Shown in pieces: positions 6,638-34,400 of a stretch of 64,000 nt of DNA. Position numbers and translations under genes: made by a program. The stretch is from Verrucomicrobiota bacterium. GTDB lineage: Bacteria; Verrucomicrobiota; Verrucomicrobiia; Limisphaerales; SIBE01. How positions within the stretch are numbered: position 1 is the stretch's first letter; every line of letters starts with the position of its first letter. The stretch is taken from positions 160 to 64,159 of the forward strand of contig JACQWK010000022.1 of the NCBI GenBank assembly GCA_016209525.1. Direction: 5' to 3'. The notes under the pieces were generated by a model. It did not search any database and was not told the DNA's origin. It saw only the letters and a list, made by a program, of their open reading frames with translations.

Positions 6638-8095
6638 TCAAGCCAACAGCTTCGTCACCACATTTCCGGCGACGTCCGTGAGTCGAAAATCGCGGCCCTG
6701 GAAACGAAACGTGAGCTTGGTGTGGTCGAGTCCCAGCAGATGCAGGAGGGTGGCGTGCAGATCGTGCACATGGACTCGGTCTTCCACAGGGCCGAATCCT
6801 AACTCATCCGTGGCGCCTAGAACGCAACCGGCTTTGACGCCGCCTCCCGCCATCCAGATCGTAAAAGCGTCGATGTGATGATTGCGCCCGGTGGTTTCGC
6901 GGTTTTCTCCCATGGGAGTGCGGCCGAACTCGCCGCCCCAAATCACCAGCGTGTCATCGAGCAGGCCGCGTTGCCGGAGATCCTTGACCAAGGCCGCGCA
7001 CGGCTGATCCACATCATGGCAGACTTTTTCGAACGATTTTTGCAGGTCCTCGCCGGGGCCGCCGTGGCTGTCCCAATTCGTATGATACAGTTGGATAAAG
7101 CGGACGCCGCGTTCCACGAGCCGGCGCGCGAGCAGGCAATTATTGGCAAAGGAAGGTTTGCCCGGTTCTGCGCCGTAGAGCGCGAGAGTGGACGGCGATT
7201 CCTGGGAAAGGTCGATCAACTCCGGCGCGCTCGTCTGCATGCGGAACGCCATTTCGTAAGCGGAAATGCGGGTGGCGATCTCGGAGTCGCGCGTCTCGAC
7301 CAGTCGCTGCAAGTTCAGGTCGCGAATGGCATCGATGGCTTGCCGCTGCCGGGCCGGAGTGATGCCCTTGGGATTGGACAGGTTGAGGATGGGATCGCCT
7401 TGTCCGCGCAAAGGCACGCCTTGAAAAGTCGAGGGCAAGAATCCGCTGCCCCAATTCACCGCGCCGCCGCGCGGGCCGCGCGGGCCCGATTGGAGAACCA
7501 CGAAACCCGGCAAATTCTGCGCTTCGCTTCCGATCCCATAGGTCACCCATGCGCCCATGCTGGGCCGGCCAAATTGAGCGGAGCCGGTGTTGATGAACAA
7601 TTTCGCCGGAGCATGGTTGAACACTTCGGTGGCGCAAGAACGGATGATGGTGATGTCATCCACGATGGTCGAGATGTGAGGAAACATCTCGGAAACCCAG
7701 GCGCCGCTTTGGCCATGCCGTGCAAACTCGCGTCGCGTGCCGAGAAGTTTTGGCGGCGCTTTGGTAAACGTGTCCATGAAGGCGAATCGTTTGTCTTTGA
7801 TAAAAGATTCCGGAATCGCTTGGCCGTTCAGTTCCCGGAGTTTCGGCTTGTAATCGAAAAGCTCAAGCTGGCTGGGTCCGCCCGCCATGAAGAGATAGAT
7901 GATGTTCTTGGCTCGGCTTGGAAAATGAGGATTCTTCGGGGCGACAGGGCTAATCAATTTCGGCGTGTCCTGCGCGAAACTAGAGGACTGGCGCAGGAGT
8001 GATGCCAGAGCGATGGATCCAAGGCCCACGGCGCATCGACTGAAGAAGTGCCGGCGCGTAATCGAGAGCAGCTCTTGACTGGTTGGATCGACCAT
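6638..8095 (-). CDS. DUF1501 domain-containing protein (sulfatase-fold, Tat signal)
   Basis: 485 aa. Tat-type N-terminus SITRRHFFSRCAVGLGSIALASLL, then NIIYLFMAGGPSQLELFDYKP...VVLQSG...WDSHG...VIWGGEFGRTP...GRNHH, the pattern I associate with DUF1501 of Planctomycetes/Verrucomicrobia. Confidence 0.85.
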   Translation of the reverse strand: MVDPTSQELLSITRRHFFSRCAVGLGSIALASLLRQSSSFAQDTPKLISPVAPKNPHFPSRAKNIIYLFMAGGPSQLELFDYKPKLRELNGQAIPESFIKDKRFAFMDTFTKAPPKLLGTRREFARHGQSGAWVSEMFPHISTIVDDITIIRSCATEVFNHAPAKLFINTGSAQFGRPSMGAWVTYGIGSEAQNLPGFVVLQSGPRGPRGGAVNWGSGFLPSTFQGVPLRGQGDPILNLSNPKGITPARQRQAIDAIRDLNLQRLVETRDSEIATRISAYEMAFRMQTSAPELIDLSQESPSTLALYGAEPGKPSFANNCLLARRLVERGVRFIQLYHTNWDSHGGPGEDLQKSFEKVCHDVDQPCAALVKDLRQRGLLDDTLVIWGGEFGRTPMGENRETTGRNHHIDAFTIWMAGGGVKAGCVLGATDELGFGPVEDRVHVHDLHATLLHLLGLDHTKLTFRFQGRDFRLTDVAGNVVTKLLA

Positions 8096-8165
8096 TGTCT
8101 CGTCCAGAAATTATGGCAAGAAGCGGGTCGGGTCAATGGCCGTTTCATGGCGGTGGGCGTCCCGC

Positions 8166-8274
8166 CTGCGGTAGAGCCGGGCATCCTGCCCGGTGGAGCT
8201 TGGCCAAAGATCGGAAGCTGGTCTGGTGTTTCACGCTGCGGTAATGGCGGCAAGATGCGCCCCCTCTACGGCAG
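8166..8274. repeat. Cluster of GC-rich CTGCSGTAGRG-type elements
   Basis: CTGCGGTAGAG (8166-8176) followed by hairpin CCGGGCATCCTGCCCGG (8177-8193); CTGCGGTAATG (8236-8246); CTCTACGGCAG (8264-8274, the reverse complement of CTGCCGTAGAG). Same core recurs at 26652-26662, 26838-26848, 26937-26947. Confidence 0.6.
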
Positions 8275-8315
8275 CCAGGATGGCCACCGCTGCGAACAAG
8301 TCACAGATGCACCGG

Positions 8316-9254
8316 CTACAGGGCTATCTCCCGCCCTTCGCTGGCGAAGAAGACATCCACATCACCATACTTGCCCGCATGGCAGTATTTTTCCGCCAGC
8401 GTATCCAACTGTTGGTCTGTGCGCATGGGGTCGTGATGGAACAGAGCGAGCGCTTTGACCCCCGCGCGAGCCGCCGCCTCGCAGGCATATTCAATCGGGG
8501 TATGGCCCCAGCCCAGCTTGGTCGGAGCGTATTCTTCCTGGGTGTACTGCGCGTCGTAAATCAGCAAATCCGCTCCGGCGAAGAACTTCTCCAGCGCCTC
8601 GTTCTGTTCTTGCGCCACCATCTCGCCCTCTTGGGCGATCGCTTCGTTATAGTCGGGATGCTTGGGGTCGCTGCAAAACAGGTTTCGGAAAGGCTCGGTG
8701 TCGAACGCCGTGCAAAAAACCTTCCCTTGGTGCTCGAACCGGTAACCCAAGCAGAGGATCGGATGATTGAGATACTTGGTCAGAAGCGTGATGCCGTCTC
8801 CCAAGTCGAAGCAACCTTCCTGCAGATGAGCGTATTCAATCTTCGCCGCCAGTTCGACTCCACGGATTGGAAAATAGCGGTAGCTAAACTGCCCTCCGAC
8901 AATCTGCTCCAAGGTATCGTGCTCATGGGTCTTGGGGCCAAAAACCTTGATCGAGCTGCCTGGAACATAAATCGGCGTAAAAAATGGAAAGCCGCTGATA
9001 TGATCCCAGTGGGTGTGGGAAAGATAGATCTCGGTCTTGATCGGCCCTTTCCGCTGGTCATGGGTCATTAGATAGTTGCCGAGTTCCCGGATGCCGGAAC
9101 CGGCGTCTATGATGATCAGCCTATTCCCCGCGCCGGGAAAGCGCAGCTCGATCGACGGCGTGTTGCCTCCGTATTTCACCGTCGCCGGACCAGGACATGG
9201 GATGGACCCGCGCACTCCCCAGAAGATGGCCTTGATCTTTGGATTGTCCATCAC
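8316..9254 (-). CDS. MBL-fold metallo-hydrolase
   Basis: 312 aa with SHTHWDHISGFPFF (HxHxDH motif) and C-terminal ...LFHHDP. Start (GTG 9254 or ATG 9251) overlaps the stop of the upstream HDOD gene (TGA 9253-9251). Confidence 0.85.
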   Translation of the reverse strand: MMDNPKIKAIFWGVRGSIPCPGPATVKYGGNTPSIELRFPGAGNRLIIIDAGSGIRELGNYLMTHDQRKGPIKTEIYLSHTHWDHISGFPFFTPIYVPGSSIKVFGPKTHEHDTLEQIVGGQFSYRYFPIRGVELAAKIEYAHLQEGCFDLGDGITLLTKYLNHPILCLGYRFEHQGKVFCTAFDTEPFRNLFCSDPKHPDYNEAIAQEGEMVAQEQNEALEKFFAGADLLIYDAQYTQEEYAPTKLGWGHTPIEYACEAAARAGVKALALFHHDPMRTDQQLDTLAEKYCHAGKYGDVDVFFASEGREIAL

Positions 9255-10219
9255 GACAAGTTGATAAAGGCCTTGGCCTTTTCCACCTCCTCAAGCACAG
9301 TCTTTTCGATCTCGGTCATGACCTGCGGAGCCAGGTTCAGTTTTTGCAGGATTTGAGGAAGCAGAGAGGTTTCCGGATGGGTGTCACCCGCCGCGCCAAT
9401 CTTGTGCGTATTGCAGTAGATGTTCGCCAATTCGATGACGGCCACCAGCGCAAAGACGTCTGGGGCCGCCTTTTCCAGTTCGTGATGAAAACTCAGGCAC
9501 TCCACAATCGTCCGGCTGAGTTTCCACTTTTCCGCGATCATTCTTCCGACGCACCCGTGGTCAAAGCCGAAGACCTCCTGTTCGGCTCGGCACAAGGGAA
9601 TCTGCCGTTCCTGGGATTGCCTCAAGACGGTTGCGTATTCGTCTGCAAAACACTCCACCAACGGAATCTTCCCCAGATCGTGCAGCAGGCCGGCCACAAA
9701 ATAGTCTTCGCGTTCGGCCGGGAGCACATTCCTCTTCATCGCCAGAGCCTTCGCCGTGACTCCAACGCCCAGCGAGTGTGCCCAGAAAAGATCCGTCCGC
9801 AACACCCGCTCCGATTTTCTGCCCTGCATCGCGCCCAGCACGGCCGTGCTCAGGGCCAGGTTTTTCACAGTATTCATCCCCAGCATGATGATCGCGCGGG
9901 TCAGCGTGGGAATCCTGTCCGGCAACGAATAGTACGCCGAGTTAATCAGTTTCAGAACTCGGCTGGTTAAGACCGGGTCCAGAGAGATGATTTTGTTCAG
10001 GTCGTTCGGCGAAGTGTTGGGGTGGTTGCAGATTTCCAGAACCTTGGTGACCGTAGTCGATAGCGCCGGCATTTGATCAACACAATCCCGAACCCTCAGC
10101 ATCCGCTGCTCGTACGCTATGGGCCCATTATCCATGCACGCCTGTCCCCACTGAAGGAGACGGGACAGCATGACGGGACTGGATGCCAAAAAGCAAGTCC
10201 GGAAGCCAGGAATTCTCAT
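9251..10219 (-). CDS. HDOD domain-containing signalling protein
   Basis: 322-aa ORF. MPALSTTVTKVLEICNHPNTSPNDLNKIISLDPVLTSRVLKLINSAYYSL...GLLHDLGKIPL...FGFDHGCVG... is the HDOD pattern. The true start may be an internal Met; the N-terminal 40 aa are not conserved-looking. Confidence 0.8.
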   Translation of the reverse strand: MRIPGFRTCFLASSPVMLSRLLQWGQACMDNGPIAYEQRMLRVRDCVDQMPALSTTVTKVLEICNHPNTSPNDLNKIISLDPVLTSRVLKLINSAYYSLPDRIPTLTRAIIMLGMNTVKNLALSTAVLGAMQGRKSERVLRTDLFWAHSLGVGVTAKALAMKRNVLPAEREDYFVAGLLHDLGKIPLVECFADEYATVLRQSQERQIPLCRAEQEVFGFDHGCVGRMIAEKWKLSRTIVECLSFHHELEKAAPDVFALVAVIELANIYCNTHKIGAAGDTHPETSLLPQILQKLNLAPQVMTEIEKTVLEEVEKAKAFINLS

Positions 10220-10336
10220 TTTGGCCGTCCGGAGTCCCGGCTTGAGCCGGTCGGGAGGGAAAGCCGGCTAAATGGCTCTGGCGAACCTGGGAAGAATTTG
10301 ACATCGTTCCACCGCCACGGAAACACTGGCAACTCG

Positions 10337-10934
10337 ATGCTCGAACGGCTCTTTGCACTCTCGGCACATCGCACGTCAATCCGTCGGGAAATCGTCGCTG
10401 GCCTGACCACCTTTGCGGCCTTGGCTTACATTCTTGCGGTCAACCCGGCCATCCTCGCCGCCAGCGGCATGGACGTCGGAGCCGTCATCACTGCGACCGC
10501 GCTCGCCTCGGCTCTGATGACTTCGGTGATGGCACTGGCCACCAACTATCCCATTCGAATCTGCGGCGGGTGTCGAAGAAGGGGGGCGCACCGGATTGAC
10601 CGCGTTGGTCGTCGCCGCGTGCTTCCTCGCCTCTTTGTTTTTGCACCCGATCATACGAATGATTCCTGCGGTATCCACGGCTCCTGCGCTTGTTATCGTT
10701 GGGGTCTTCATGATGCAAGGCGTGGCCAGGCTGGACCTCTCGGAATTCTCAAAGGCTGTTCCGGCCGTCTTGACGATGGTGCTCATGCCATTGACGTTCA
10801 GCATCAGCGAAGGCATCGCCATCGGCTTTCTGGTTCACGTCGCGCTGATGATCGGGACCGGACGCCGGAGAAGCGTCTCACCGGTCGGCTATGTTTTAAG
10901 TTTCCTTTTTTTGCTGCACATCCTCGCTTGCTAG
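10337..10934 (+). pseudogene. NCS2/AzgA-family purine (adenine/guanine/hypoxanthine) permease with a large internal deletion and frame break
   Basis: N-terminal 72 codons (MLERLFALSAHRTSIRREIVAGLTTFAALAYILAVNPAILAASGMDVGAVITATALASALMTSVMALATNYPI) align with E. coli AdeP/GhxP residues ~14-86. At ~10553-10557 the sequence jumps, in another frame, to the C-terminal quarter (ESAAGVEEGGRTGLTALVVAACFLASLFLHPIIRMIPAVSTAPALVIVGVFMM...LTFSISEGIAIGFLVHVALMIGTGRRRSVSP...). About 240 residues of the transporter core are missing. Confidence 0.8.
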
Positions 10935-11149
10935 GCAAGAGAGCAAGAGAGGAGGTTTGTAGATTTTGTTTGGCAAGCCGGCTAGATATGGATAGTGTGA
11001 TCCTGGTCAAAATTTTGGAGTATCGCAGCCACCCAGGAGCCCTGTGTGAATTCACCTCACTTTCCACGATGGAGGCAGCGCCGCAAGCTGCGTTGCGTCG
11101 AACGCAGAGTATCCTCTCCGTGAGGAAAGCAACAACCGAAAGGATTCTT

Positions 11150-14100
11150 ATGCGGCCAATTCCGATCTTCTTGGTGCTGTCATCGCTGTTCGGAACTGCA
11201 CCCACCCGAAATCTGCAAGCTCAGGTCGTCTTCGGCCCGGGTGACCCCGGGCGGGTGGAAGCTGAGCAAACGTTCGTTGCAGGGGTTATCAAAGCGGAAG
11301 TCTATCGCGACATCGGCGGCAACGCGGTCAGTGCTCTCACCGGCAGTCCAAAATATCCGAACCAGCCGGACGAGACACGCTTCCTGAAGTTTATGGAATT
11401 TCCGCCTGGTGGTGACGACGGGAGCCGTCCGCCCAGCGATGTGAGTAATAACTACGGAGTCAGAATCAGCGGATTCGTCATTCCGAAGCAGACTGCCAAT
11501 TACGTCTTTTTCATCGCATCCGATGACAATGGCGAACTCTGGCTGAGCACGAGTGATGATCCGGCCAACAAGCGATTGATTGCGCGCGAACCGGAATGGA
11601 ACCCCGTCCGGGCTTGGACGGCGCCAACCCGGCGGCCCGGCTGCCCGGATAACGGGGGCACGCAGTGCGATAACCGATCGCAGCCGATTCGTCTCGAAGC
11701 CGACAAGCGATATTACATTGAAGCATTCGTTAAGGAAGGCGTGGGGGGCGACAATCTGGCTGTCACGTGGATCAAGCAAGGCGAACCTGACCCGGCCGAC
11801 GGCGCGTTGCCCATCGGATCTGAGTTTCTCGGCGCATTATCCGATGCGAGGCAAAATCAGCCTCCAGCGATTACGCTGCAACCCCAGAATCAGACCGTCG
11901 ATTCAGGTGCAAGGGTCAGCTTCACCACTACAGCGATCGGCACACCCACACCGCGGTACCAGTGGAGGCTAAATGGAGTCAATCTCCCGGGCGAGACTAG
12001 CCCGACCCTGGTGCTAGCCAACGTTCAGCCGTCGAACTCCGGCCTGTACAGTGTCGCAGTCCAGAACTCGCTCGGGGCCGCGGCGAGCCAAGCGGCCATT
12101 CTGTCAGTGCGTGCGCCCGCATTGGCGCTGGCGGATGCTTTCGAGAGACGCTCCAACTATTTCGCGCTATTCTTCACTGGCCGAGGCTCAAACGAGAAAT
12201 ACACCCGTCAAACTCGAGAACCTTTTCATGCAAACAAGAATGGATCGACTTCGGCTTGGATTGCCTGGACGCCTTTAACCACCGGTGTCGCGACCTTCAC
12301 AACCGCAGGGAGCACGTTTGACACCTTGCTGGCGGTTTATACGGGGAGCGTTCTCACGAATCTCATACGCCTGGTTAGCGACGATGACAGTGGGGGCGCG
12401 CTAACCAGCAGAGTTTCGTTCAATGCTAGCGCGGGTGTCCAGTATCAAATCGCCATTGATGGTTTCAATGGCGCGTCGGGCGACGTTGTTTTGACTTGGG
12501 GGCTGGATCCCTTCGGGGACACCCTGCCAGTAGTATCGGAAATTGAGAAAGAGCCATCCTCTCCTTCTGTTGTGCCAGGCACTCGCGTGAGATTGTCTGT
12601 TCAGGCGCTGGAGCTTCCAACAGGAGCGAGAACCATCGGTGCCCAGGTCCAGTGGTTTCACAACGGAAAAGAGATTCAAGATGCGACTAACAATGTGTTG
12701 GTGATCCCCTCGGTGCAGCGGCAGGAGGTGGGCGGTTACGTGGCACGGCTCTTCACGATCACGGAGATGAGAGATCGGTTTGAGAACATCATTCTGAGCA
12801 CTAGCCGAGTCTATTCCGCCCCGGCGATCCTTCAGATCAACACTGCGGGAGAAACGAATGTGTCGGCCTTGGACAAGCTGGGCGACTTGGTTGTCGGCAC
12901 CAACCGCGTGTCCCAATTCACCGCGCTTGCGACTGCGCGGCGAATTGGGCCATCCTTCAACACTCTAGGCGTCGCCGCCGCCGCGCCAGCCCGCGGTTTT
13001 TCCGGTTCGCAAGTCTTTAATACGTCATGCGTGAATCCGGAGCCTCCTCCCTGCAGCCCGGCGACTAAAGAGCCGAGTGAACCCATTCATGGCGGGGAAA
13101 TTGGCGGTGCTTCCATGTGGATGTCCTACCAGCCTCTCGTTGATGGATTGTTAACCATTGATAGTTCCGACAGTGATTTTCCGAACGTTGTGGCTGTTTA
13201 CACGGGTCCCGGAGCGCTCATGTCCGGTTTGACGGAAGTCTCCTACCGATTGGGGCCGATTCCAAAGGGCAACGGCAAACTCGTCGAACTTCAAGCCGTG
13301 AAAGACCGGATTTATTATATCGCGGTGGATGGGGTCCGTGGGCCAACCGGAGACGTGGCAAAGGGCCTTGTGACTCTGAAATATGCCCTGACGTCGGACT
13401 GTCCTTTGGTGCGGTTTGTGACGACCGACACGACGACGCAGGGGAGTTGGAAGACGAAGTATGGGGCGGATGGTCGCGTCGTTGTCGGCGATCCGACTAC
13501 CCTCCTTCCAGGTTACATCCTTGTGGCTCCGAGTGGGCCCTCAAGCTACACATGGCTCGCCTCGACCCTGGCAATGCGAGCACTCCAGAAGGACGGCAGT
13601 GTTACTGATCGCTTGGCGGCTTGCTGGTATGCGAACAACTCCTTCGACCTCGGCCTGAACGTGACGGGTTCGGAACTGCGTCGAGTCGCCCTGTATTTTT
13701 TGGATTGGGAAGGCGGGAGGGAACAGCAGGTTGAAATATTTGCCGCTGGCGGCGCCGGACCGCCGTTGAATACGCAGACCGTGACCGGTTTTTATGACGG
13801 CAAATATCTGGTTTGGGACATCAAGGGGAATGTTACGATTCGGGTTAAATCCACCGTGGCCGCTAACGTTGTGCTGAGCGGGTTGTTTTTTGACACACCC
13901 GGGGCAGGCACGCCGGTGGTCACTTTTGTGACGACCGACACGACGACGCAGGGGAGTTGGAAGACCAAGTATGGGGCGGACGGTCGCGTCGTTGTCAGCG
14001 ACCCGGCTACCCTCCTTCCAGGTTACATCCCTGTGGCTCCGAGTGGGCCCTCAAGCTACACCTGGCTCGCCTCGACCGCGGAAATGCGAGCACTCCAGAA

Positions 14101-14710
14101 GACCGGCCTTGCTACTGATCGTCTTGCGGCCTGCTGGTATGCAGCCAACTCCTTCGACCTCGGCCTGAACGTGACGGGTTCGGAACTGCGTCGAGTCGCC
14201 CTGTATTTTTTGGATTGGGAAGGCGGGAGGGAACAGCGGGTTGAAATATTTGCCGCTGGCGGCACCGGACCGCCGTTGAACACGCAGACCGTGACCGGCT
14301 TTTATGGTGGCAAATACCTGGTTTGGGACATCAAGGGGAATGTTACGATTCGGGTTAAATCCACGGTGGCCGCTAACGTTGTGCTGAGCGGGTTGTTTTT
14401 TGACACACCCGGTTGCCTGAGCACGGGTGGCCTCCTCGGTTTCATGCATAGCCGGGAAGCGATTAACTCGCGGCTGTTCATCAACCAATTCGAGCGCGCT
14501 ACCCTTGCTGGCGGGTTTCGGCTGAACGCGGTAGTGGAACCGCATCGACGATACTTGATAGAAGCGTCAACGGACTTGATTCATTGGACCTTTTTGGGCG
14601 CCGACATGGCTCCGCCCAGCGGTTTTGTTGAATTCTTAGATGCGGACGCCGCGAAGCTTCCCCATCGGTTCTATCGAATCATTGAGAAGCCCGCCAACCC
14701 CGGCGAATGA
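11150..14710 (+). CDS. Secreted multidomain protein: PA14-like domain, Ig-like domain(s), two DxxLAVYTG-type beta-sandwich modules, duplicated 163-aa carbohydrate-binding-like module, C-terminal STDLxxW...RFYR domain
   Basis: ATG at 11150 gives signal peptide MRPIPIFLVLSSLFGTAPTRNLQAQ. PA14-like: NYGVRISGFVIPKQTANYVFFIASDDNGELWLS...YYIEAFVKEGVGGDNLAVTW. Ig-like: PPAITLQPQNQTVDSGARVSFTTTAIGTPTPRYQWRLNGVNL...SGLYSVAVQNSLG. C-terminus: YLIEASTDLIHWTFLG...HRFYRII. The ORF-track entry 10073-14710 is an artefactual upstream extension through the permease pseudogene. Confidence 0.8.
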   Translation: MRPIPIFLVLSSLFGTAPTRNLQAQVVFGPGDPGRVEAEQTFVAGVIKAEVYRDIGGNAVSALTGSPKYPNQPDETRFLKFMEFPPGGDDGSRPPSDVSNNYGVRISGFVIPKQTANYVFFIASDDNGELWLSTSDDPANKRLIAREPEWNPVRAWTAPTRRPGCPDNGGTQCDNRSQPIRLEADKRYYIEAFVKEGVGGDNLAVTWIKQGEPDPADGALPIGSEFLGALSDARQNQPPAITLQPQNQTVDSGARVSFTTTAIGTPTPRYQWRLNGVNLPGETSPTLVLANVQPSNSGLYSVAVQNSLGAAASQAAILSVRAPALALADAFERRSNYFALFFTGRGSNEKYTRQTREPFHANKNGSTSAWIAWTPLTTGVATFTTAGSTFDTLLAVYTGSVLTNLIRLVSDDDSGGALTSRVSFNASAGVQYQIAIDGFNGASGDVVLTWGLDPFGDTLPVVSEIEKEPSSPSVVPGTRVRLSVQALELPTGARTIGAQVQWFHNGKEIQDATNNVLVIPSVQRQEVGGYVARLFTITEMRDRFENIILSTSRVYSAPAILQINTAGETNVSALDKLGDLVVGTNRVSQFTALATARRIGPSFNTLGVAAAAPARGFSGSQVFNTSCVNPEPPPCSPATKEPSEPIHGGEIGGASMWMSYQPLVDGLLTIDSSDSDFPNVVAVYTGPGALMSGLTEVSYRLGPIPKGNGKLVELQAVKDRIYYIAVDGVRGPTGDVAKGLVTLKYALTSDCPLVRFVTTDTTTQGSWKTKYGADGRVVVGDPTTLLPGYILVAPSGPSSYTWLASTLAMRALQKDGSVTDRLAACWYANNSFDLGLNVTGSELRRVALYFLDWEGGREQQVEIFAAGGAGPPLNTQTVTGFYDGKYLVWDIKGNVTIRVKSTVAANVVLSGLFFDTPGAGTPVVTFVTTDTTTQGSWKTKYGADGRVVVSDPATLLPGYIPVAPSGPSSYTWLASTAEMRALQKTGLATDRLAACWYAANSFDLGLNVTGSELRRVALYFLDWEGGREQRVEIFAAGGTGPPLNTQTVTGFYGGKYLVWDIKGNVTIRVKSTVAANVVLSGLFFDTPGCLSTGGLLGFMHSREAINSRLFINQFERATLAGGFRLNAVVEPHRRYLIEASTDLIHWTFLGADMAPPSGFVEFLDADAAKLPHRFYRIIEKPANPGE
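13415..14412 (+). repeat. Tandem in-frame duplication, period 510 bp (two 488-bp near-identical copies: 13415-13902 and 13925-14412)
   Basis: Both copies start TTTGTGACGACCGACACGACGACGCAGGGGAGTTGGAAGAC and end GGGTTGTTTTTTGACACACCCGG. The encoded 163-aa modules (FVTTDTTTQGSWKTKYGADGRVVV...VLSGLFFDTPG) are identical at 151 of 163 positions by my count. Confidence 0.95.
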
Positions 14711-14777
14711 ACAATCCTGAATTTGCCAAACCTGCAATGAGTTGGTTAGGGCAACAATTCGAGGCGATAATTGAGGA

Positions 14778-17700
14778 TCAAAAAACAACCTTCGTCGTGA
14801 CCGCCAGCGTGCGCTCGCGGGGCAATTCGGAATAAAGATTGAGCGGGTTGAGGCGGTAGTCCCGACCGCTGACATTCAACAGTCCAAGCCGAATTTCGGC
14901 GAGCCGTCGAGGAAAACGGTAGCCGGCATACAGATTGAACTGCCAAAAGTCATCACCCTCGATCTCGGGCTTGTATCCCCAATGGCTTTGATTGTTCCAA
15001 AGCGTTTGGAACTGTGCGAAAAAGCCCCGGAGGTGATTGTAGGTGGCGGAAAGTTCTAGTTGATGCAGCGTCGCGGTATTGTCGCTCTCGATTAGCGTGG
15101 CGGCCCCAAGCGCCGCGGTGCGCGGAACCGCGGAGTAACTGCGCCTCAACTCCGACTCCGTCACCTGGTACCTTGCCCCCAGAGACCATTCCTTGGCGAT
15201 CAACTGGTTGAGCGTCACGCGGAGGGATTTCTCTTCATAGCCCAGGTTTTCGGGTGTGCCTGACGGAAAAGGAAGCGAGGATTCACTGCTTTCAAAAGCG
15301 CCGACCTCTCGTCTTGCTTTCGACCGCAATAATTGGCTTTCGACACCCAGATACGTTCCGGTCTCAGACCTGTGGTCCAAGGCGAGGCCTCCCGTTTCAA
15401 ACTGGGAACCTGGCACCAACCCTGTGAGTGATTCAGGAATCAAACTGCGGAAGGCCTGATTGAAGCCCGCAATCTGGGTCGGCTCAATCCGGACGCTCGT
15501 GTCATAGAAAACGCCGCCGAGCGACCGTGTGTACGCCGCCCGCAGGTGAGTGTTCTTTTGGAGAGCCCACCGCAAGCCGGCCTTGGGAGAGAATTGGTCT
15601 TCGTTCGTTTGCCGGTTCGTGATGGGGACGATGTCAATGTTTTGTGGAAAATCCAGGCGGTCGTAAGCCAGGCCGCCTTCCAACCATAATGGATCCAATA
15701 TCTGGTATTGATAGTACGTGTAGAGACTGAGGCGATTCAGGTCCGCCTCTGCGGTCTGGTTTTCGAAACGAGCCGGAATGACAGGAAAGTCGCTCAGAGA
15801 TCGGTTGATGTGCGCGTTCGCCTCGATCGAGCCGCTTTGATAACGAATTCCGCCAACGAACATTTGCCGATTCTTATGCCAAATCTGCTGTAATTCTGCC
15901 GAATAAGCCTCCAACTCACTTTGGTAACTTAGGTTGAACGGTCCGTCCGCTGGTTGGGGATGAAACGCAAACTCAACAATCGAGCCTTTTGTGTCCCGGG
16001 CCAAAAACAGAGCTGAGGACCCCGGATCCGACCGCGTCAGCGTATCCTCGAGTCTTCCGAATAACAAAAGCGTGTGCGATCCCGGGGCCCATTCATGGTG
16101 ATAGCCGGCAAAAAGATTGGGCTCCTGTTTCTCGGTCACCCGTTGCGTGCGGCTGGCGCTGGCCTGGTTGTAATACTGGGCCACGTCGCCGAACTCAGAA
16201 TCATAGGACAGGGATTGGAAGAAAACACTGTCCTGCGGACTGATTTGCTGTTTGACCTTGGCCGACCAAGTCAGTTGAGAAAGATCGCTGTTGGGTCGCT
16301 GGCCGTTTTCTGTTCGGTAAAATGCGTCCAACGCATAACCCGAGTTGCCAAAATTGCCGTACTGCGACCCCGCCTGGGCCCAATCCCCGCGGCTGCGGTA
16401 CTCGGTTAGCGAAAGAACACCGAAGCGATCGCGTTCGAACAGTCGGCTGTATTCTTGTTGGGAGACATTCTGCGATAATGTCCCCGCGCCGACGGGCGAC
16501 AACAAGTTGGCCAATAGCAGCTCGCTGAGCCAGGGCGTTTCGTAGCGCAGGTTGATCTGTCGGGGATCCCTCAGTTCGTTGTAACTGTTCGCCAAGAAGA
16601 GGTGGGCGGAATAATTGCCGTAGTCGCTGTTCACGGCCCGGGCAGCCTCGCGCGCACTTACGTCGAACATTCCCGCGTCACGGTAAATGGCGGCCAGATT
16701 CGCGCTGCGCACGGCGCGATCTTGGTCGAGAAGAAGGCTTGAGCGGTAAACTTGCCTGTTGTCGTTGAGTCGGGCCGATCGCTCCAAGTCCTCAATCGCT
16801 TCGTTGATGCGATTTTCCCGTTGCTTAATCAACGCCGAGTAAAGGTGGGGCGTCGGATCCTGCGGATCCAATTGCTCGGCCAATTCCAACTGCTCAAGTG
16901 CCTCCTGCTTCAGGTCTGAGACGCCACCCCATAGACCGCCCGAATCGTAGTAGGCTTTGCCGAGGTAACTCCTTAAAAGAGATCGCTCGGGCTCGACCGT
17001 TGTCGTCGCCTCAAGGTGCTGGAGTCCCTGGAAATTCGTCCTCGCTCCCCAAGCCCAAGAGAGGCCGGCTCGCCGAGAATATTCGATAGCGTTCTCGCGG
17101 CGCAGTTCAGCCAGCCCCATCCCGAGCCAAGCGTTCCCAAGTCGGCCATCCAAAGCCGCCGCCTCACGGAATCGCGCGAGCGCCCCGGTGTAGTCGTTCC
17201 GTGCCCAGCTCAAGAAGCCGCGCAAAGCAACGGCTTGCGCATTGCCGCCCCCGTGTTTCCGAGCTTTGGCTAATGCCGCTTCGGCTTCTGGGATGCGGCC
17301 GAAGCTGAACTCCAACTCTGCCCGACGGACCCAGCCGAATCCAAACGTCGATCCCTCGGGAGTCGCGTGCTTCGCAGCGATTAAAGCCCGATCCAAAGCC
17401 GTCATGGCCTTTCGATAGACTTTATGCTCCCATGGGGTTGGGGCGTAGGCGCGCCCAGCGCGCGACTGTTGGTAGTACGACTCCGCCAGCCATTCCGTCG
17501 CCAGACTTGGTTCCTCAGCGCGTTTCCAATCGTTCCCTTGGACAGCGGCAATAACTTGATGAATGGCTTCTACGATTTGCCTTTGTCGCGGATACCCGGC
17601 TTCGGCCACTGATAAATTCTTCACCAGAGATTCTGCCTTTTGGAACTGGCCACAGACCAAGACCAATCCGGCAAAGTAAAGCTTCTCCGGATTATTGGCG

Positions 17701-18518
17701 GGTTCGCGGTCAGCGGGATATTCCGCCAATGCCGCGGGCAGATTCCCTTCCGTGTAAGAACGGACAGATTTTTCGAGTTCCGCATTCGTCGTCGCGGTGA
17801 GCGCGATGTCTTCGAGATGCACCACGCCGGGGTAGTATAAGAATGTTTGCGCGAGAGCTTGGAGTTCAAGGTAGGGAACTTTGCGCAGCGACTTATTCTC
17901 CGGGTCAAACTTGCCTGCTTCTTGATTCGTAAGGGTGATGGTGTTGGCTAGCTCCATCTTGTTCGTCAAGAGGACGCGTCCCTGTGCGACTCGAATGAAC
18001 ATTTCGCCGTTGGTCATCACTTGGACAATGACGTCTGTCCCGCGCACGCTGCCCGCAACGTCTTTGGTCTCGAAAGCAGCCGGCTGCTTCGCCCTGCCGC
18101 CGAGAACACGGAAGATGCCCTGCCAAAACCCCAATGACTGCTCCTGATCGGGTATGGTCAGCCGAGAATTCGGGCCCAGGGACACATCGTCCTTAGGTTC
18201 CTGCCCCCTGATCGGGATCATCTTCACTGTTACCGAGCTGGCCGTGAAGGTCTGCACCTGGTCCCGCGGATACAGATAATGGTCTCGGGGCGCAGGATAC
18301 CAGTTCACGCCGGAATTGGTCGAATACTCCACCCGGCGCACAGGGTTGATGATTTGGGCAGCCGCTTGGTCCCCGGCCAAAAGAATTGAGAACGCGGTCT
18401 CGAAAAGGAGCAGGAACAGGCCGAGTCCAATGGCCGACGCTCCGTTCTTCTTGGGAGATTGGCCTCGCGCGGGAAGTTCAAAACGGAGATGCCACTGTTT
18501 TGCCGGCGACAAAGACAT
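14778..18518 (-). CDS. Outer-membrane protein: N-terminal FecR-like domain, central TPR repeats, C-terminal beta-barrel
   Basis: 1246 aa. Signal/anchor IGLGLFLLLFETAFSILLAG. FecR-like segment ...VAGSVRGTDVIVQVMTNGEMFIRVAQGRVLLTN. TPR-like helices (ALARFREAAALDGRLGNAWLGMGLAEL; LEQLELAEQLDPQDPTPHLYSALIKQRENRINEAIEDLERSARLN; YGNYSAHLFLANSYNEL). Last ~550 aa are alternating-hydrophobic strands ending ...RERTLAVTTKVVF (terminal Phe, OMP beta-signal style). ATG 18518 lies 3 nt after the stop of the upstream gene. Confidence 0.7.
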   Translation of the reverse strand: MSLSPAKQWHLRFELPARGQSPKKNGASAIGLGLFLLLFETAFSILLAGDQAAAQIINPVRRVEYSTNSGVNWYPAPRDHYLYPRDQVQTFTASSVTVKMIPIRGQEPKDDVSLGPNSRLTIPDQEQSLGFWQGIFRVLGGRAKQPAAFETKDVAGSVRGTDVIVQVMTNGEMFIRVAQGRVLLTNKMELANTITLTNQEAGKFDPENKSLRKVPYLELQALAQTFLYYPGVVHLEDIALTATTNAELEKSVRSYTEGNLPAALAEYPADREPANNPEKLYFAGLVLVCGQFQKAESLVKNLSVAEAGYPRQRQIVEAIHQVIAAVQGNDWKRAEEPSLATEWLAESYYQQSRAGRAYAPTPWEHKVYRKAMTALDRALIAAKHATPEGSTFGFGWVRRAELEFSFGRIPEAEAALAKARKHGGGNAQAVALRGFLSWARNDYTGALARFREAAALDGRLGNAWLGMGLAELRRENAIEYSRRAGLSWAWGARTNFQGLQHLEATTTVEPERSLLRSYLGKAYYDSGGLWGGVSDLKQEALEQLELAEQLDPQDPTPHLYSALIKQRENRINEAIEDLERSARLNDNRQVYRSSLLLDQDRAVRSANLAAIYRDAGMFDVSAREAARAVNSDYGNYSAHLFLANSYNELRDPRQINLRYETPWLSELLLANLLSPVGAGTLSQNVSQQEYSRLFERDRFGVLSLTEYRSRGDWAQAGSQYGNFGNSGYALDAFYRTENGQRPNSDLSQLTWSAKVKQQISPQDSVFFQSLSYDSEFGDVAQYYNQASASRTQRVTEKQEPNLFAGYHHEWAPGSHTLLLFGRLEDTLTRSDPGSSALFLARDTKGSIVEFAFHPQPADGPFNLSYQSELEAYSAELQQIWHKNRQMFVGGIRYQSGSIEANAHINRSLSDFPVIPARFENQTAEADLNRLSLYTYYQYQILDPLWLEGGLAYDRLDFPQNIDIVPITNRQTNEDQFSPKAGLRWALQKNTHLRAAYTRSLGGVFYDTSVRIEPTQIAGFNQAFRSLIPESLTGLVPGSQFETGGLALDHRSETGTYLGVESQLLRSKARREVGAFESSESSLPFPSGTPENLGYEEKSLRVTLNQLIAKEWSLGARYQVTESELRRSYSAVPRTAALGAATLIESDNTATLHQLELSATYNHLRGFFAQFQTLWNNQSHWGYKPEIEGDDFWQFNLYAGYRFPRRLAEIRLGLLNVSGRDYRLNPLNLYSELPRERTLAVTTKVVF

Positions 18519-18521
18519 AAA

Positions 18522-20132
18522 TCAGGCCGTTCCTCCGCCATTCATTTTGAAGTGCGTGCAAAGTTGGCGCCAAAGAAGGCGAAACCGCCGAGGGCCGGGA
18601 TTTCGTCGGATGCCGCTCCTGAGCATATTGGCGATGCCGAGAACGCTCGCCTCCTTCTGATCGACATGGAAAATCTTCCGTGTGTTTTCGAGTGCTTTGC
18701 TCAGGGACTCGGGCAGCGGGTGACCCGCCGCTTTATGCTTTTGGATGAAATCCCCGACTCCTTCGAGGTAAACCGGAACGACGGCTCTCGCGGCGTCAAT
18801 TTCCTTGCCGATGAAATCATCCGGCCCCCAACTTGTGATCACTTCCGGGGTGACGACCAGAACAAGATTATGGCGCTTGCGCACCTCACGGATTAGAACT
18901 TCTTCCGCCTTGCCCGGGACATTTTCCTGAAGATCGATGAACGCCTCAATCCCCATACGTTTCAATCCATCGGCAATGATCGTGGCGACGTCTTTGCCGT
19001 CCGCACCCCGAAAGGAGATGAAGACGTCATTCACTGGAATGAAGGAGATTGCAAATCCGGCGAGCATTTGGGGCACCGCAACGATCAGCCAAAGAGGGAG
19101 GAATTTCGCATACGTGAACAAAAGGAAAGAGAGAAAGCCGGCGGCCAACGCGAAACTCACGGCGTTGACAAAGGCTGTCCGTGGTGGCCACCGCGTAAAG
19201 CAAAATCCGCAACTGACGCCCACGACTGCCACGATCAAATACTCTTGAGAGACTGCAAGCTCTTTAATCCAATCCCGATTTACGAGATTCGAGTATGCGG
19301 TCGCGTGAATCTCGATTCCGCTCGACGTGGCGGGACCAAAACACGTGAATGGAGTCTCATGCCGGTCCGGCGCGTCCTGTCGATCTGTGGTGACCGGCCC
19401 CTGCCCGATGAACACAACTTTGCCTTTCAAAGCGGCGCGCAGATCGTTTGTTCCGGCCAGGATCGATCGGGCTTCCAACTTCGCCAGAGTGCCAGGAGGG
19501 CCGTAATAGTTGATCCAGTGCGAATACCGATAAGATTCCTTTAAGAGTTGGGCAATCGCGACAACCAAGGGGGCGTGCGGGTACCCGGCGTCGGACGAAT
19601 GGCGGCGAATGACTCCGCTTAATTGCTGCAAATTAGACACGCCAATCTTGGTCCGATTGGTCAACCATTCGACTTCGACTAGTTTCTGAATCTCCTCTGA
19701 GGGCCCAAGTTCCGTCTTTTCTCCCGCTCTTTTCCCTTTCTGTCCCTCGGTGGCAAAGACCAACTTCATATCGGCCCTTTGGGTCGCATTGCTTACGGCT
19801 CTGGTGAACTCCGACACTACTTCCGGGTGCTCCCAGCGCTCAGAAATGAGGACAATGTCGAGGACCGCCGCCTTGGCGCCCTGTTCCGCCAGCTCGTCCA
19901 GGAGCTTGATAATATTCGTGTGGTTCTTGTCGGAATCCTCAATGAAGACAACAGTGACGTTTTGATTTGGCATCACTGCGGTGTTCGCGAAAGAATGTCG
20001 CGCGGCGAACAGGTAGTCCATGGTCCTATCCAGAGGAGAGAAGGCGAGGAACAGAAGCCCAGTTAGCGACACCACAACAGCGCTGCAAATCTCTCGCTTG
20101 TAGGCACAGGGGACTGACGCTCGCTGTTTCAT
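18522..20132 (-). CDS. CHASE2 extracytoplasmic sensor - 3 TM helices - cytoplasmic TIR domain protein
   Basis: ATG at 20132 (the ORF track uses TTG at 20183). MKQRASVPCAYKRE + TM (ICSAVVVSLTGLLFLAF). ~300-aa periplasmic region with CHASE2-like features (VTVVFIEDSD...LLDELAEQGAKAAVLDIVLISE...KLVFAT...VVFIGQG...GIEIHATAYSNLV). Three TM helices (YLIVAVVGVSCGFCF / AFVNAVSFALAAGFLSFLLF / LWLIVAVPQMLAGFAISFI). Then NDVFISFRGADGKDVATIIADGLKRMGIEAFIDLQENVPGKAEEVLIREVRKRHNLVLVVTPEVITSWGPDDFIGKEIDAA, a TIR signature (DVFISFRG..., ...S.W...E). Confidence 0.7.
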   Translation of the reverse strand: MKQRASVPCAYKREICSAVVVSLTGLLFLAFSPLDRTMDYLFAARHSFANTAVMPNQNVTVVFIEDSDKNHTNIIKLLDELAEQGAKAAVLDIVLISERWEHPEVVSEFTRAVSNATQRADMKLVFATEGQKGKRAGEKTELGPSEEIQKLVEVEWLTNRTKIGVSNLQQLSGVIRRHSSDAGYPHAPLVVAIAQLLKESYRYSHWINYYGPPGTLAKLEARSILAGTNDLRAALKGKVVFIGQGPVTTDRQDAPDRHETPFTCFGPATSSGIEIHATAYSNLVNRDWIKELAVSQEYLIVAVVGVSCGFCFTRWPPRTAFVNAVSFALAAGFLSFLLFTYAKFLPLWLIVAVPQMLAGFAISFIPVNDVFISFRGADGKDVATIIADGLKRMGIEAFIDLQENVPGKAEEVLIREVRKRHNLVLVVTPEVITSWGPDDFIGKEIDAARAVVPVYLEGVGDFIQKHKAAGHPLPESLSKALENTRKIFHVDQKEASVLGIANMLRSGIRRNPGPRRFRLLWRQLCTHFKMNGGGTA

Positions 20133-20279: not shown

Positions 20280-20693
20280 CTAGTCCGGCGTAACTGTGCG
20301 GCGGAGCCGCTTTTTCTCACCGTGTCGCGCTTTGTCCGCGAGCATGCGCTCCGTCGCGCGACGAGAGCGTTTCCGTCGCTGCCGGCGCATTTTTTCGAGG
20401 GCCGAGCGTTCGGCCGACGCGCGGCTTTTTCGCATTTCGTCGATCTTGTCGAGCAAGAGCTGGCGCGCCAGGAACCGGTTCATGGCCTGATGCCGCGTCG
20501 TCTGGCATTTCACGCGCAAGCCCGTGGGGCGATGCAGGAGCAGGACGCAAGAAGAAATCTTGTTCACGTTCTGGCCGCCCGGGCCACCCGAACGGATGAA
20601 CGTCTCCTCCAAATCGCTCTCGCGCACGCCGAACGCCGCCATCCGTTCTTCGAGGCGCGCCAGTTTGTCCGGTGATATGGGATTTGAACTCAT
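20280..20693 (-). CDS. arfB: ArfB/ICT1-family GGQ peptidyl-tRNA hydrolase (alternative ribosome-rescue factor-like)
   Basis: ATG at 20693 gives 137 aa. RSGGPGGQNVNKISSCVLLLHRPTGLRVKCQ (GGQ motif) followed by a long basic tail (RRQRRKRSRRATERMLADKARHGEKKRLRR), matching the ArfB/YaeJ architecture. The ORF track starts at GTG 20729. Confidence 0.65.
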   Translation of the reverse strand: MSSNPISPDKLARLEERMAAFGVRESDLEETFIRSGGPGGQNVNKISSCVLLLHRPTGLRVKCQTTRHQAMNRFLARQLLLDKIDEMRKSRASAERSALEKMRRQRRKRSRRATERMLADKARHGEKKRLRRTVTPD

Positions 20694-20734
20694 GCTTCTA
20701 TTTCTGGAGGCCGAGGTGACAAGGCTCACCTGGA

Positions 20735-31405: not shown

Positions 31406-34400
31406 CTATGGCGGAGGACTGATGGTCGCGCCGCTGCCCAGCGTTACCGTTCCTCCGTATGAGACTGTGCTGCCGTTCAAGGTCACCGCGGTGTTCGGAA
31501 GGACTTGGATATTGCCAGAGTAAGTCTGGTCCCCAGTCGAAGTCACGCTCAGACTCGAGACACCTGTGGCGCCGAAAACCGTGCTGCCTCCCCCAAGGAC
31601 GGTGAGGACGGTCAGATCAGTGAGGTTGCCAGTCAGTATCGTTTTGGTGGACGCGTTCAACGTTAGGGCGTGATCGATGCCGTCCTGGCCTCTCACAGGT
31701 CCCAACTGGATCGTCGTTCCGAGGATGGAGGTATTCCCTGTCAGCTCCAGCGTGTCGCGCAGAGTGACGGTTGTGGCCCTCAGAATGCTTGTTCCCAGTG
31801 TAATCGTGCCGGCCAAGGTTGCCGCCGGATCAACGAGGAAGGCTTTCAGAATCTTGGAAACGCCGACCGTGCCGTTGAAAGTCGCGTTATGGCTCGCGTT
31901 CACGGTGAGAGTTCTGGAATTGTCGGTGTCCGAGTCAATCGAACTTCCGAATGTTGCATCCGTGACGTTGATGGTGGAATTGCCGGCTAATGTTACCGCA
32001 TCGGCAATTGCGAGAGTCGTGGCCTTAACGTCGGATTTGAAGATCGTCGTTCCGCCGCCGTTGCTGGTCAGGGCAAGAAGCGGCCGATGGGACTTCGTAT
32101 TGGAAACGACCGTCCCGAAGCCGATGGAATCGGCGAAAGTGGTGACTCCGCTGGCGGTCACGGTCAGTTCACCGCTCGGAGTCGAATTGGCAGCGGCTGA
32201 GTTTACGGATCGCTCGAACGTCACCGTTGCCGCGGCGAGCGAGGCCGTCCCGCTCACCGTAACCTTATCCTTGAATAACAACGTCGTCACCGTGATGTCG
32301 CTGTCTTTCAACTTGGTGGTGCCTGCCGAATCGGTGGTCACGCTCGCGATCGGCTCGAGATTGCCGATGGTGCCGAACGTGGTCACGCCCGACGCATTTA
32401 CGGTGAGTTGCCGGGCGGCGGATTCCGAATCCGCATTGACAGCGCCATTGAATGTCACGGTCGTGCCGGAAAACGTCACATTCTCCTCCAAGAGGACCGG
32501 GCTGCCGTAGGTCTGAATGCCGGCCTTGACTTCCGTTGACTTGAACTTCAAGGCTCCGGTGCCTGCCGAGGCGAATGATTTGAGCTTAACGGAGCCGCCT
32601 ACGATTCCGTTCAGCGTGGAGGTGCCCAAGCTGGTGGCGCTGCCGAGGGTCAACGATTGCGTGCCGGGTGTGGCTCCGTTGACCGTCGATTGAAATGAAA
32701 GCGAACTCGAAGGCACCACGTTCGCATTGCCCGTCACCGTTACCGGATCATTAAACACGATGGTCTTGCCATAAATCGCGGAGCCAATTCTCGTGGAATC
32801 GTTGCCTGCCGCATCATCCGTCGTCAGGGTTCTGACACCGAAGCTCGCGTTTCCCACGGCGCCGTTGAAAGTCGTGACGCCGCTCGCGTTGACGGTCAGA
32901 TCGATGGTTTCATGGGCACCGAATGTTACCGCCTTCGAAAAGGTCACGGTGGGCGCGTTAACAGTTGTATGCGCGTTCAATGTGACGGAATCGCCGAATT
33001 TGATCGTTCCGGTTGCCGTAAAGCTGCCGCCGCTGCCATTGACCAAGACCGATCCTGCCGAGTCCGTCGTCAGTGAGGTTAGACCCGAAACTGACCCCCC
33101 GAACGTTGTGACGCCGGTTGCGTTCAGGTTCAAGATTTCGTTGCCGCCGACGCCGCTCACCGTGCTTTCAAAAGTGATGGTCGTGCCTGCGATCGTCGTT
33201 GTGGAAGCGTCGAATTGAGCGGGATCTTTGATGGTGAGCGTCCCAACCTTCACTGAATTGGCGCCGGTTTCAAAGATCGTGGTGCCGCTGCCGTCGGTTT
33301 CCATTCCTTTCAAGTTTGCGACGGTACCGACTGCTCCACCGAAGGTGGTAGTCGGCGAATTGATTTGCAGCCAATTTGCGCCCGCCGTGGCGCCGTTCAC
33401 CGTGCCGTCAAAGTCCACGCTCGTGCTGGCGGTGAGCCGGGTTCCCGTAGTAATCGTCCCGACGCCTGAGGCTTTGAACGAGTTTCGGTAGTTTTGAACG
33501 GGCACATCAATCAAGCCTTTGACGAAGGTCGTGCCAGTGGCCGGCGTCGTCAGGCTCGCGAAATTGCTGACCGTTCCGTTGAAAGTGGCGTTGCCGGTCG
33601 TCGCCAGCGTCAACGTGTTCGCCGGATCATCGCCGCTCAGTGTCGAACCGAACGTCAATGTCGCGCCCGAGAAGGTCGTTGCCGCCGCTTTCAGTGTGAC
33701 CGGATTCTGGAGATTGACGGTTGCGGCTTCGATGGTGGCGATTTGGAATACGGTGCTACCCGTCGTGCCGGTGGCGATTGTGCCGGGGTTGAAGGTGTTG
33801 CCGATGGCGCCGGCGAATGTGATCACGTCGCTGGCATTCACGGTTAGCGATCCGCCGCCGTCGGTCGTGGCATGGTTGACCGTGCCACTGAAAGTAACAT
33901 CGCCATCCAAGGCGACCGTCGGCTGCGCTTTGATCACCACGGTGCCGCCGACAATGAAGTCATCGGTGATATTCACGGTATTAGCTGTCACCGCGGAGTT
34001 GAACTGGGTGGTGCCGCCGCCGTCGGACGTCAACGTATCCAGCTTTGCCGTTGTTCCCACCGCCTTCCCGAAGATCGTTGCGCCCGCGGATGTCACCGTC
34101 AGATCGCGAGCGGTCACCGCCGAGTCGGAATTAACCGTGCCGTTAAAGGTGACGGTAGAGGCAGCGAGTGTGACGTCGCTCAGCAACTGGACGGCGTCGG
34201 CATAAGTCTGCGCTCCAGTGGTCGTCAGCGACGCGGTGGAAACCGCCGTCGTCCCACCGCCGTTGCTTGTCAGCGCGGCCACCTCGGTGATGGCGCCGGC
34301 GAGGGTCGTCAAGCCGGCGCCGGTCAATGTCAGGTTATGCGAGTTGCCATCCACGGCGCCAAGGGTGAGTGTCCCACCGGCCTGCAATGTCGCGTCGGCA

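Follow-up and report, generated by a model that had tools for sequence, protein, structure and literature searches.

A CHASE2-TIR receptor gene adjoining an NsrA-like outer membrane protein gene in Verrucomicrobia: a candidate trans-envelope TIR module

Analysis of 64,000 nucleotides (nt) of a Verrucomicrobiota genome (GenBank assembly GCA_016209525.1, contig JACQWK010000022.1, positions 160 to 64,159; the whole stretch is called the window here) revealed two adjacent genes, referred to as A and B. Gene A encodes a receptor with an extracytoplasmic CHASE2 sensor and a cytoplasmic TIR domain, and gene B encodes a predicted outer membrane protein homologous to a FecR-domain protein of Sinorhizobium meliloti. 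The chassis formed by such a pair is already known; the TIR output that it carries here is the new element. Taken as a whole, a gated receptor that cleaves nicotinamide adenine dinucleotide (NAD+) is a highly probable description of the pair. The more specific reading that we favor, though tentatively, sees in A and B a trans-envelope receptor built like NsrA/CHASE2, with a SARM1-like TIR domain standing in place of a cyclase or kinase and acting by NAD+ depletion or a direct effect.

Both open reading frames (ORFs) are intact, and inspection of their start and stop codons bore out the original prediction that they lie on the same strand 3 nt apart (AAA on the plus strand), with A upstream of B. 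This gap suggests translational coupling. An alternative TTG start for gene A is present at position 20183. The two products are identical to P0001, annotated as a "CHASE2 domain-containing protein," and P0007, annotated as a "hypothetical protein," which are encoded on one 82.8-kb contig of a Verrucomicrobia metagenome-assembled genome (MAG). A scan of the DNA for promoters and terminators gave results no better than those from shuffled sequence.

The extracytoplasmic region of A was matched by Pfam CHASE2 (PF05226) over amino acids (aa) 20 to 305 with 73.7 bits, against a cutoff of 26.3 (E = 2.3e-20), which agrees with the domain originally predicted. Hydropathy and an AlphaFold model built on a 41-sequence alignment (predicted local distance difference test score, pLDDT, 89.7; predicted template modeling score, pTM, 0.83) were in agreement on the layout: a first transmembrane (TM) helix at about aa 9 to 33, a mixed alpha/beta periplasmic domain at about aa 34 to 293, and three further TM helices between aa 294 and 362. 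This is the topology of a CHASE2 receptor, with one TM helix, an extracytoplasmic domain, three TM helices, and a cytoplasmic output, and it had been predicted as such; only the size of the periplasmic domain needed correction, from ~300 aa to ~260 aa. In the model, the output domain starts at aa 368 to 369, and the TIR fold begins only three residues past TM4. A Foldseek search of the Protein Data Bank (PDB) with the model of A returned no solved CHASE2 structure; all significant matches were to the TIR part.

A cytoplasmic TIR-type output of ~140 aa had been proposed for A, and both sequence and structure comparisons upheld it. Pfam TIR_2 (PF13676) matched aa 370 to 457 with 38.9 bits against a cutoff of 28, and in the model a beta-alpha-beta TIR fold begins at aa 369. 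The best PDB sequence match of this domain in phmmer was the TIR domain of SARM1 (E = 6e-7), and the top TIR-only structures retrieved from the PDB by Foldseek were SARM1 TIR as well (target-normalized TM-score of 0.72 to 0.79, E of ~1e-5, probability of 1.00), followed by plant TIRs, AbTir, PdTIR, and BtpA. Weaker matches were obtained to TIR-SAVED and to the TIR effectors of PADLOC, in which A matched TIR effector models only (SAVED-TIR). With NCBIfam, the Thoeris type III model ThcB4 scored 18.6 bits against a cutoff of 220, and the retron-TIR model was likewise far under its cutoff.

The candidate catalytic glutamate of A was assigned from the phmmer alignment, in which Glu444 falls on the Glu of the SARM1 motif DWVHKEI; we take the latter to be the catalytic E642, numbering from the landmarks Y568/R569/R570 and D594/G601. 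The expectation of a Glu at the catalytic position was sustained, but the Trp by which it had been located (W434) is another residue, and the canonical Trp site, four residues upstream of the Glu, is occupied by Phe440. Every family sequence that covers the Glu444 column (40/40) has Glu there. Among the 41 members of the family defined below, F371 is found in all, S373 and R375 in 40 each, D400 in 38, and G407 in 37, and the window copy keeps these five residues. At four positions it has another residue than most of the family: F at position 374 (Y in 37 members), G at 376 (R in 23), A at 409 (F or L in 31), and F at 440 (W in 30). Relative to the family pocket consensus of Y, R, D, G, F/L, and W, the window copy retains R375, D400, and G407. 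P0002, a paralogue of A, is likewise somewhat divergent in its TIR pocket. As far as is known, bacterial TIR domains having this Glu are NADases wherever they have been assayed. By its pattern of conservation, the CHASE2-TIR family looks like an enzyme under selection, and sequence and model together indicate that the TIR domain of A is probably NAD+-cleaving.

This family was collected by searching 1.84 billion representative proteins exhaustively with HMMER, which gave 1421 matches; from the top 150, we kept the 41 that align into the TIR region. TIR_2 was found in 39 of these candidates and CHASE2 in 36, the remainder being fragments. Judged by sequence clustering, CHASE2-TIR is no single odd fusion, as it makes up at least 35 clusters at 50% identity. 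The named members, few in number, were all from Verrucomicrobia, with one further assigned to Verrucomicrobiae, and the variant is apparently conserved in, and confined to, Verrucomicrobia. A profile search with TM4 plus the TIR domain returned only short TIR_2 fragments of <240 aa, which were uninformative on architecture or lineage.

Gene B had been described as a fusion of a FecR-like periplasmic domain and TPR repeats to a large C-terminal barrel. The model of its mature part (aa 56 to 1246; pLDDT 89.4, pTM 0.85) consists of a beta-sandwich (model residues 1 to 160), an alpha-solenoid (163 to 626), and a barrel of ~22 long strands (643 to 1190). TPR repeats, barrel, and the terminal ...TTKVVF were all verified, the barrel with TonB_dep_Rec_b-barrel (PF00593) at 40.4 bits and the TPRs with weak Pfam matches; the terminal Phe is nearly invariant among homologues. 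Together with the signal sequence, the C-terminal Phe is consistent with an outer membrane protein. The FecR-like designation fared less well, as Pfam FecR gave no direct match to B, or to its closest relatives, even at E < 10. However, the first 185 mature residues of B are colinear with residues 64 to 237 of the homologue P0014 (E = 1e-7), in which Pfam FecR scores 55 bits at residues 88 to 183, and the B-family profile matches PDB entry 4m0n, a FecR-type putative anti-sigma factor. On this sequence evidence, "FecR-like" is right for the N terminus of B only as remote homology.

The best Foldseek matches of B were the TonB-dependent transporters OprC, FptA, FhuA, and FecA (E of ~1e-14). We rejected the view that B is itself such a transporter because it has no Pfam Plug domain (E < 0.1; a TonB box was not searched for), and a TPR solenoid precedes the barrel. 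As a separate observation, the candidates for an element closing this plug-less 22-strand barrel are the long unstructured segments that separate strands at about model residues 946 to 983 and 1160 to 1181, or the end of the TPR part.

The relation of B to a characterized system emerged from a verrucomicrobial CHASE2-cyclase query, which reached cyaK on S. meliloti pSymB. The gene directly upstream of cyaK, with a 1-nt overlap, specifies a "FecR domain-containing protein" of 1197 aa in which FecR and TPR matches were obtained, and hhalign aligned the B-family profile with this protein at a probability of 99.6% (E = 1.4e-24, 994 columns). A tblastn search of plasmids with B returned nothing, and similarity between B and the S. 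meliloti homologue is absent at the BLAST level. We take this gene to be nsrA, whose position upstream of cyaK was reportedly described by Garnerone et al. in 2018. The size of the encoded protein agrees with that of NsrA (PMC7529298). NsrA is a predicted outer membrane beta-barrel protein, with the barrel at aa 600 to 1200, and by genetic evidence the CHASE2 cyclases CyaK, CyaD1, and CyaD2 need it to perceive an external protein, ribosomal uL2, as a signal (PMC7529298, PMC13001267, PMC10463352). The S. meliloti and window pairs thus share a FecR/TPR/barrel protein of ~1200 aa, homologous over nearly its full length, next to a receptor of the 1TM-CHASE2-3TM type. They differ in that the S. meliloti output is a class III cyclase making cyclic AMP (cAMP) instead of a TIR domain, that the outer membrane gene there precedes the CHASE2 gene whereas the order is reversed in the window clade, and that NsrA has a Pfam FecR match of 57.8 bits whereas B has none.

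We asked how regularly CHASE2-TIR and B-family genes occur together, the condition on which the functional pairing had been made to depend. Of 14 informative CHASE2-TIR loci, 13 carry a gene of the B family no more than 7.3 kb away; in 11 the two genes are adjacent, with gaps or overlaps of -41 to +319 nt wherever coordinates were available. The closest homologues of B (P0008, P0010, P0011, P0012, and P0046) all have a CHASE2+TIR_2 gene before them, as in the window. A metagenome-contig search for CHASE2-TIR loci yielded 11 loci, 3 of them useful. CHASE2-TIR comes before B in L039 and in the Joint Genome Institute (JGI) contig oMrvky5l and after B in L053, the two genes are divergent neighbors in L040, and one gene for an immunoglobulin (Ig)-repeat protein lies between them in L038 and L051; L052 is a 16.8-kb contig with CHASE2-TIR but without B, and L042 was uninformative, ending at a contig end. 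The source MAG itself holds a second pair, P0002 (CHASE2-TIR, 47% identical to A) and P0009 (B family, 51% identical), presumably adjacent, judging only by their shared 30,017-bp contig and the HY735 locus-tag prefix. In all, the pair recurs on at least 13 independent contigs, including the two paralogous pairs in one MAG. Since protein identities among the paired contigs are 24 to 50%, redundant assemblies of one population are excluded, and since the contigs are independent, the pairing is far beyond chance. A rough neighbor-joining tree (no support values) placed six TIR-partnered B proteins, including that of the window, in one clade and two more in another; this clustering by TIR partnership is consistent with codiversification of A and B.

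A second scan began from B homologues, of which there are more than 297 at full length, ~1150 to 1250 aa long and mostly carrying Pfam FecR, TPRs, and TonB_dep_Rec_b-barrel. Taking one genome per species gave 32 loci (L001 to L032), nearly all from Verrucomicrobia MAGs, with B homologues 36 to 54% identical to B over the full length. Where enough DNA lies downstream (30 loci), the next gene after the B homologue, on the same strand, invariably encodes a CHASE2 protein; 18 have a cyclase output, 5 a Ser/Thr kinase, and 5 a histidine kinase, the other 2 being cut by a contig end, and none of the 30 has a TIR domain. These pairs resemble that of the window also in that an Ig-repeat protein often adjoins them. 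They differ in gene order, the outer membrane gene being first in the 30 cyclase/kinase loci, as it is in S. meliloti and L053, whereas in the window clade CHASE2-TIR precedes the outer membrane gene. They also differ in keeping a recognizable FecR domain in B, whereas the window clade of B proteins has lost the Pfam FecR signature.

Related arrangements have been described elsewhere: in Burkholderia, the "BiofilmReg" operon contains a LysM-FecR protein (COG4254) with a CHASE2 histidine kinase (PMC5192318), and in Campylobacterota, a FecR-domain outer membrane protein is clustered with CHASE2 cyclases (PMC9239204). These systems likewise partner a FecR-domain envelope protein with a CHASE2 sensor, but they do so with a small LysM-FecR protein of the periplasm or with a separate TPR protein, and their outputs are kinases or cyclases. 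None of the papers searched links CHASE2 to a TIR output. The earlier statement that no such gene pair was known therefore holds for the TIR output and fails for the chassis, which is known with cyclase, kinase, and histidine-kinase outputs. Among TIR proteins, those of SARM1, TIR-SAVED, and TIR-STING are the nearest to A, giving the best sequence and fold matches with the catalytic Glu aligned; they are governed by cytoplasmic ARM/SAM parts or cyclic-nucleotide sensors, however, whereas A has a transmembrane extracytoplasmic sensor. Thoeris also employs a bacterial TIR with a catalytic Glu, but the TIR of A is membrane anchored and fused to a sensor. Thoeris was rejected as an identification: as the original prediction had noted for ThsA, no ThsA, SIR2/SLOG, or Macro partner lies within ~10 kb of the pair, and the NCBIfam scores are far under their cutoffs. 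Signaling of the Fec type (FecA/FecR/FecI) was also rejected, the FecR-like domain being fused to the barrel and no sigma-factor gene being present among the scanned neighbors.

The mechanism that we favor begins with B, whose plug-less barrel of ~22 strands would lie in the outer membrane while its TPR solenoid and FecR-like beta-sandwich reach into the periplasm. B would perceive an extracellular or outer membrane cue, possibly together with the neighboring Ig-repeat surface protein, and, by homology to NsrA/CyaK, would contact A and pass the cue inward through its TPR and FecR-like parts to the periplasmic CHASE2 domain. The three-helix TM bundle would transmit it to the TIR domains, whose rearrangement or clustering would switch on NAD+ cleavage through Glu444. 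Because only a three-residue tether separates the TIR fold from TM4, it is suggested that movement of the TM bundle, or receptor clustering, sets the TIR-TIR geometry directly. TIR NADases form their active site by self-association, the TIRs of SARM1, TIR-SAVED, and TIR-STING are switched on by induced assembly, and the other outputs of the chassis (cyclases and kinases) are all, as far as is known, enzymes working as dimers. The output may be the consumption of NAD+ itself, with products of the ADP-ribose (ADPR) or cyclic ADPR (cADPR) type, which would arrest metabolism or shift the cell globally into another state; this is favored because no dedicated nucleotide-sensing effector is encoded nearby in the locus. 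Depletion is supported both by the resemblance of the TIR to SARM1 and TIR-SAVED and by the absence of any effector within ~10 kb in the window. An envelope relay gating a TIR enzyme had been put forward from the sequence of the window; the idea is strengthened by homology to the genetically characterized NsrA/CyaK, and it loses in novelty to the extent that the relay chassis was already known.

Several points weigh against this mechanism. The sibling outputs, cyclase and kinase, all make signals and none kills the cell, which favors a signaling role over depletion. The TIR pocket of the window copy is off the family and SARM1 consensus at four sites, with F, G, A, and F where SARM1 has Y568, R570, F603, and W638 (Y568 to F374, R570 to G376, F603 to A409, and W638 to F440), and by these substitutions the activity of this copy could be weak or altered. 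One CHASE2-TIR contig (L052) has no B gene, and effector-like neighbors (SLATT, SLOG-patatin, patatin, and a second TIR protein) are present in some sister loci. Finally, the gene directly upstream of cyaK is presumed to be nsrA.

The closest competitor, which we consider possible though less probable than depletion, retains the same receptor and makes the TIR a second-messenger synthase whose product, a cADPR isomer or another ADPR derivative, plays a cAMP-like role and is read by a protein encoded elsewhere in the genome. Every other output of the chassis, whether cyclase, Ser/Thr kinase, or histidine kinase, makes a signal, and the neighborhood in the window is housekeeping, with no defense island. 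Effector domains of nucleotide-based systems moreover stand beside sister CHASE2-TIR genes: an LD_cluster2+Patatin gene, LD_cluster2 being, we assume, a SLOG-type domain, is directly upstream of CHASE2-TIR on the JGI contig of P0046; a Patatin gene is directly downstream in L052 (7427-8446); and SLATT_1 proteins, homologous to each other (E = 2e-10), are encoded in L038 (1-921) and L040. L040 also encodes a TPR-S+Guanylate_cyc protein homologous to a soluble cyclase in L037 (2194-3498; E = 1e-59) and, 3.9 kb from CHASE2-TIR, a second TIR protein of TIR_2-CarboxypepD_reg-TPR architecture; its neighbors of the conflict-system type lie at 7264-9180, 9337-11004, and 11109-14876. No neighbors of this type are present in the window, however, where no candidate receptor or effector lies within ~10 kb; such neighbors occur in only 4 of ~15 loci; and the TIR of A most closely resembles NADases of the depletion type (SARM1 and TIR-SAVED), not signal producers of the ThsB type.

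It is unlikely that the TIR is instead a nonenzymatic adaptor that recruits partners by TIR-TIR assembly, as in Toll-like receptors and MyD88. The topology of sensor, TM helices, and cytoplasmic TIR does match that of Toll-like receptors, L040 encodes its second TIR_2 protein, and the four pocket substitutions of the window copy would be in keeping with such a role. Against it, the catalytic Glu and the SYR/D/G pocket are kept family-wide, a sign of selection on catalysis; a search of the window turned up no second TIR protein; and NADase activity is, as far as is known, general among the assayed bacterial TIRs having this Glu. An accidental juxtaposition, or a decaying gene with no functional module, which might be thought of given that B lacks a direct Pfam FecR match and that the window TIR is off consensus at four positions, is next to inconceivable, as the synteny survey refutes it and both ORFs are intact, fold confidently, and are spaced as if translationally coupled.

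To our knowledge, the bacterial TIR enzymes studied so far are switched on intracellularly by phage proteins, cyclic nucleotides, nucleic acids, or NTPase sensors. In A, the TIR domain is wired directly to a two-membrane receptor whose cyclase version perceives a protein signal from outside. Should the TIR prove active, the pair would make a tractable system in which NAD+ cleavage is controlled through two membranes by an extracellular cue. It would further show TIR, cyclase, and kinase to be interchangeable outputs on one chassis, which would bear on TIR products as general second messengers and on the origin of the Toll-like receptor-TIR topology of animals. We also considered a broader and rather doubtful proposal, namely, that these pairs are receptors of Toll-like topology that turn a macromolecular cue from outside the cell into a nucleotide signal made by the TIR, with the help of an outer membrane coreceptor and perhaps also the Ig protein; TIR catalysis would then be a nonsuicidal messenger output interchangeable with cAMP synthesis or phosphorylation. 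For work on NsrA/CHASE2 signaling, Verrucomicrobia supply a large set of homologues that had not been examined before, and the recurrent Ig-repeat third partner might help in identifying the ligand.

TABLE 1 Positions in the window of genes A and B, their parts, and two flanking genes
Feature	Position (nt)	Strand	Basis
Gene A, CHASE2-TM-TIR receptor, 536 aa	18522..20132	minus	ORF list; ATG 20130-20132, TGA 18522-18524
A: TM1, aa 15-33, preceded by basic cytoplasmic N terminus	20034..20090	minus	Hydropathy; model helix 9-31
A: periplasmic CHASE2 domain	19218..20075	minus	Pfam PF05226, aa 20-305
A: TM2-TM4 bundle, aa 294-365	19038..19253	minus	Hydropathy; model helices 294-314, 317-342, 348-362
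A: cytoplasmic SARM1-like TIR, aa 368-505, followed by ~30-aa basic tail	18618..19031	minus	Pfam TIR_2, phmmer, Foldseek
A: codon of Glu444 (GAA), candidate catalytic glutamate	18801..18803	minus	Alignment to SARM1 E642; codon checked
Gene B, NsrA-like outer membrane protein, 1246 aa	14778..18518	minus	ORF list; ATG 18516-18518, TGA 14778-14780
B: signal-peptide region, aa 1-55; hydrophobic core aa 29-47, then AAAQ	18354..18518	minus	Hydropathy and sequence
B: diverged FecR-like beta-sandwich, aa 56-215	17874..18353	minus	Model all-beta; alignment to P0014; profile match to 4m0n
B: TPR-like alpha-solenoid, aa 218-681	16476..17867	minus	Model helical repeats; profile matches to consensus TPR proteins; weak Pfam TPR
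B: C-terminal beta-barrel, ~22 strands, aa 698-1246, terminal Phe	14781..16427	minus	DSSP on model; Foldseek; PF00593
Large secreted Ig_3/PA14 protein, tentative third component	11150..14710	plus	Pfam Ig_3, I-set, PA14; ORF opens at 10073, likely start ~11150
RF-1/GGQ ArfB-like gene, 149 aa, basic tail	20280..20729	minus	NCBIfam ArfB partial, 47.7 bits vs cutoff 100

The gene for the Ig_3/PA14 protein is convergent with B and ends 67 nt from the B stop. Its product also has two beta-sandwich repeats of ~130 aa without a Pfam match. Of the 32 cyclase/kinase-type loci, ~12 have a homologue inside the B/CHASE2 pair or within 260 nt of it, and 15 have one within 3.2 kb; at least 7 CHASE2-TIR loci besides the window have one as well (Ig-protein loci: L003, L006 to L008, L010, L015 to L020, L022, L023, L025, L032, L033, L038, L042, L051, and L052). 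The region common to these homologues is about aa 231 to 744 of the window protein (E of 1e-45 to 1e-146), and across the 64-kb window this Ig domain is found in one ORF only. The Ig-repeat protein could be a coreceptor or a ligand-presenting surface protein. Just upstream of its ORF, at 9251-10219 on the minus strand, is a gene for an HDOD/HD-domain protein (HDOD, 196 bits); HDOD is a signaling-associated domain.

On the other side of the pair, the ArfB-like gene lies 147 nt from the ATG of A and 96 nt from its TTG start, matching the 96 to 147 bp given originally. It was rejected as part of the module because the sister loci that have gene tables do not share it. The other neighbors in the window encode a secreted 464-aa protein (no significant Pfam match), an EamA transporter, an alkaline phosphatase, a glycosyltransferase, a P-type ATPase, the HDOD protein, and a DUF1501 protein; these are housekeeping genes, and nothing in the window points specifically to antiphage defense. 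Farther along, an ORF of 3775 aa occupies positions 31406-42733 on the minus strand.

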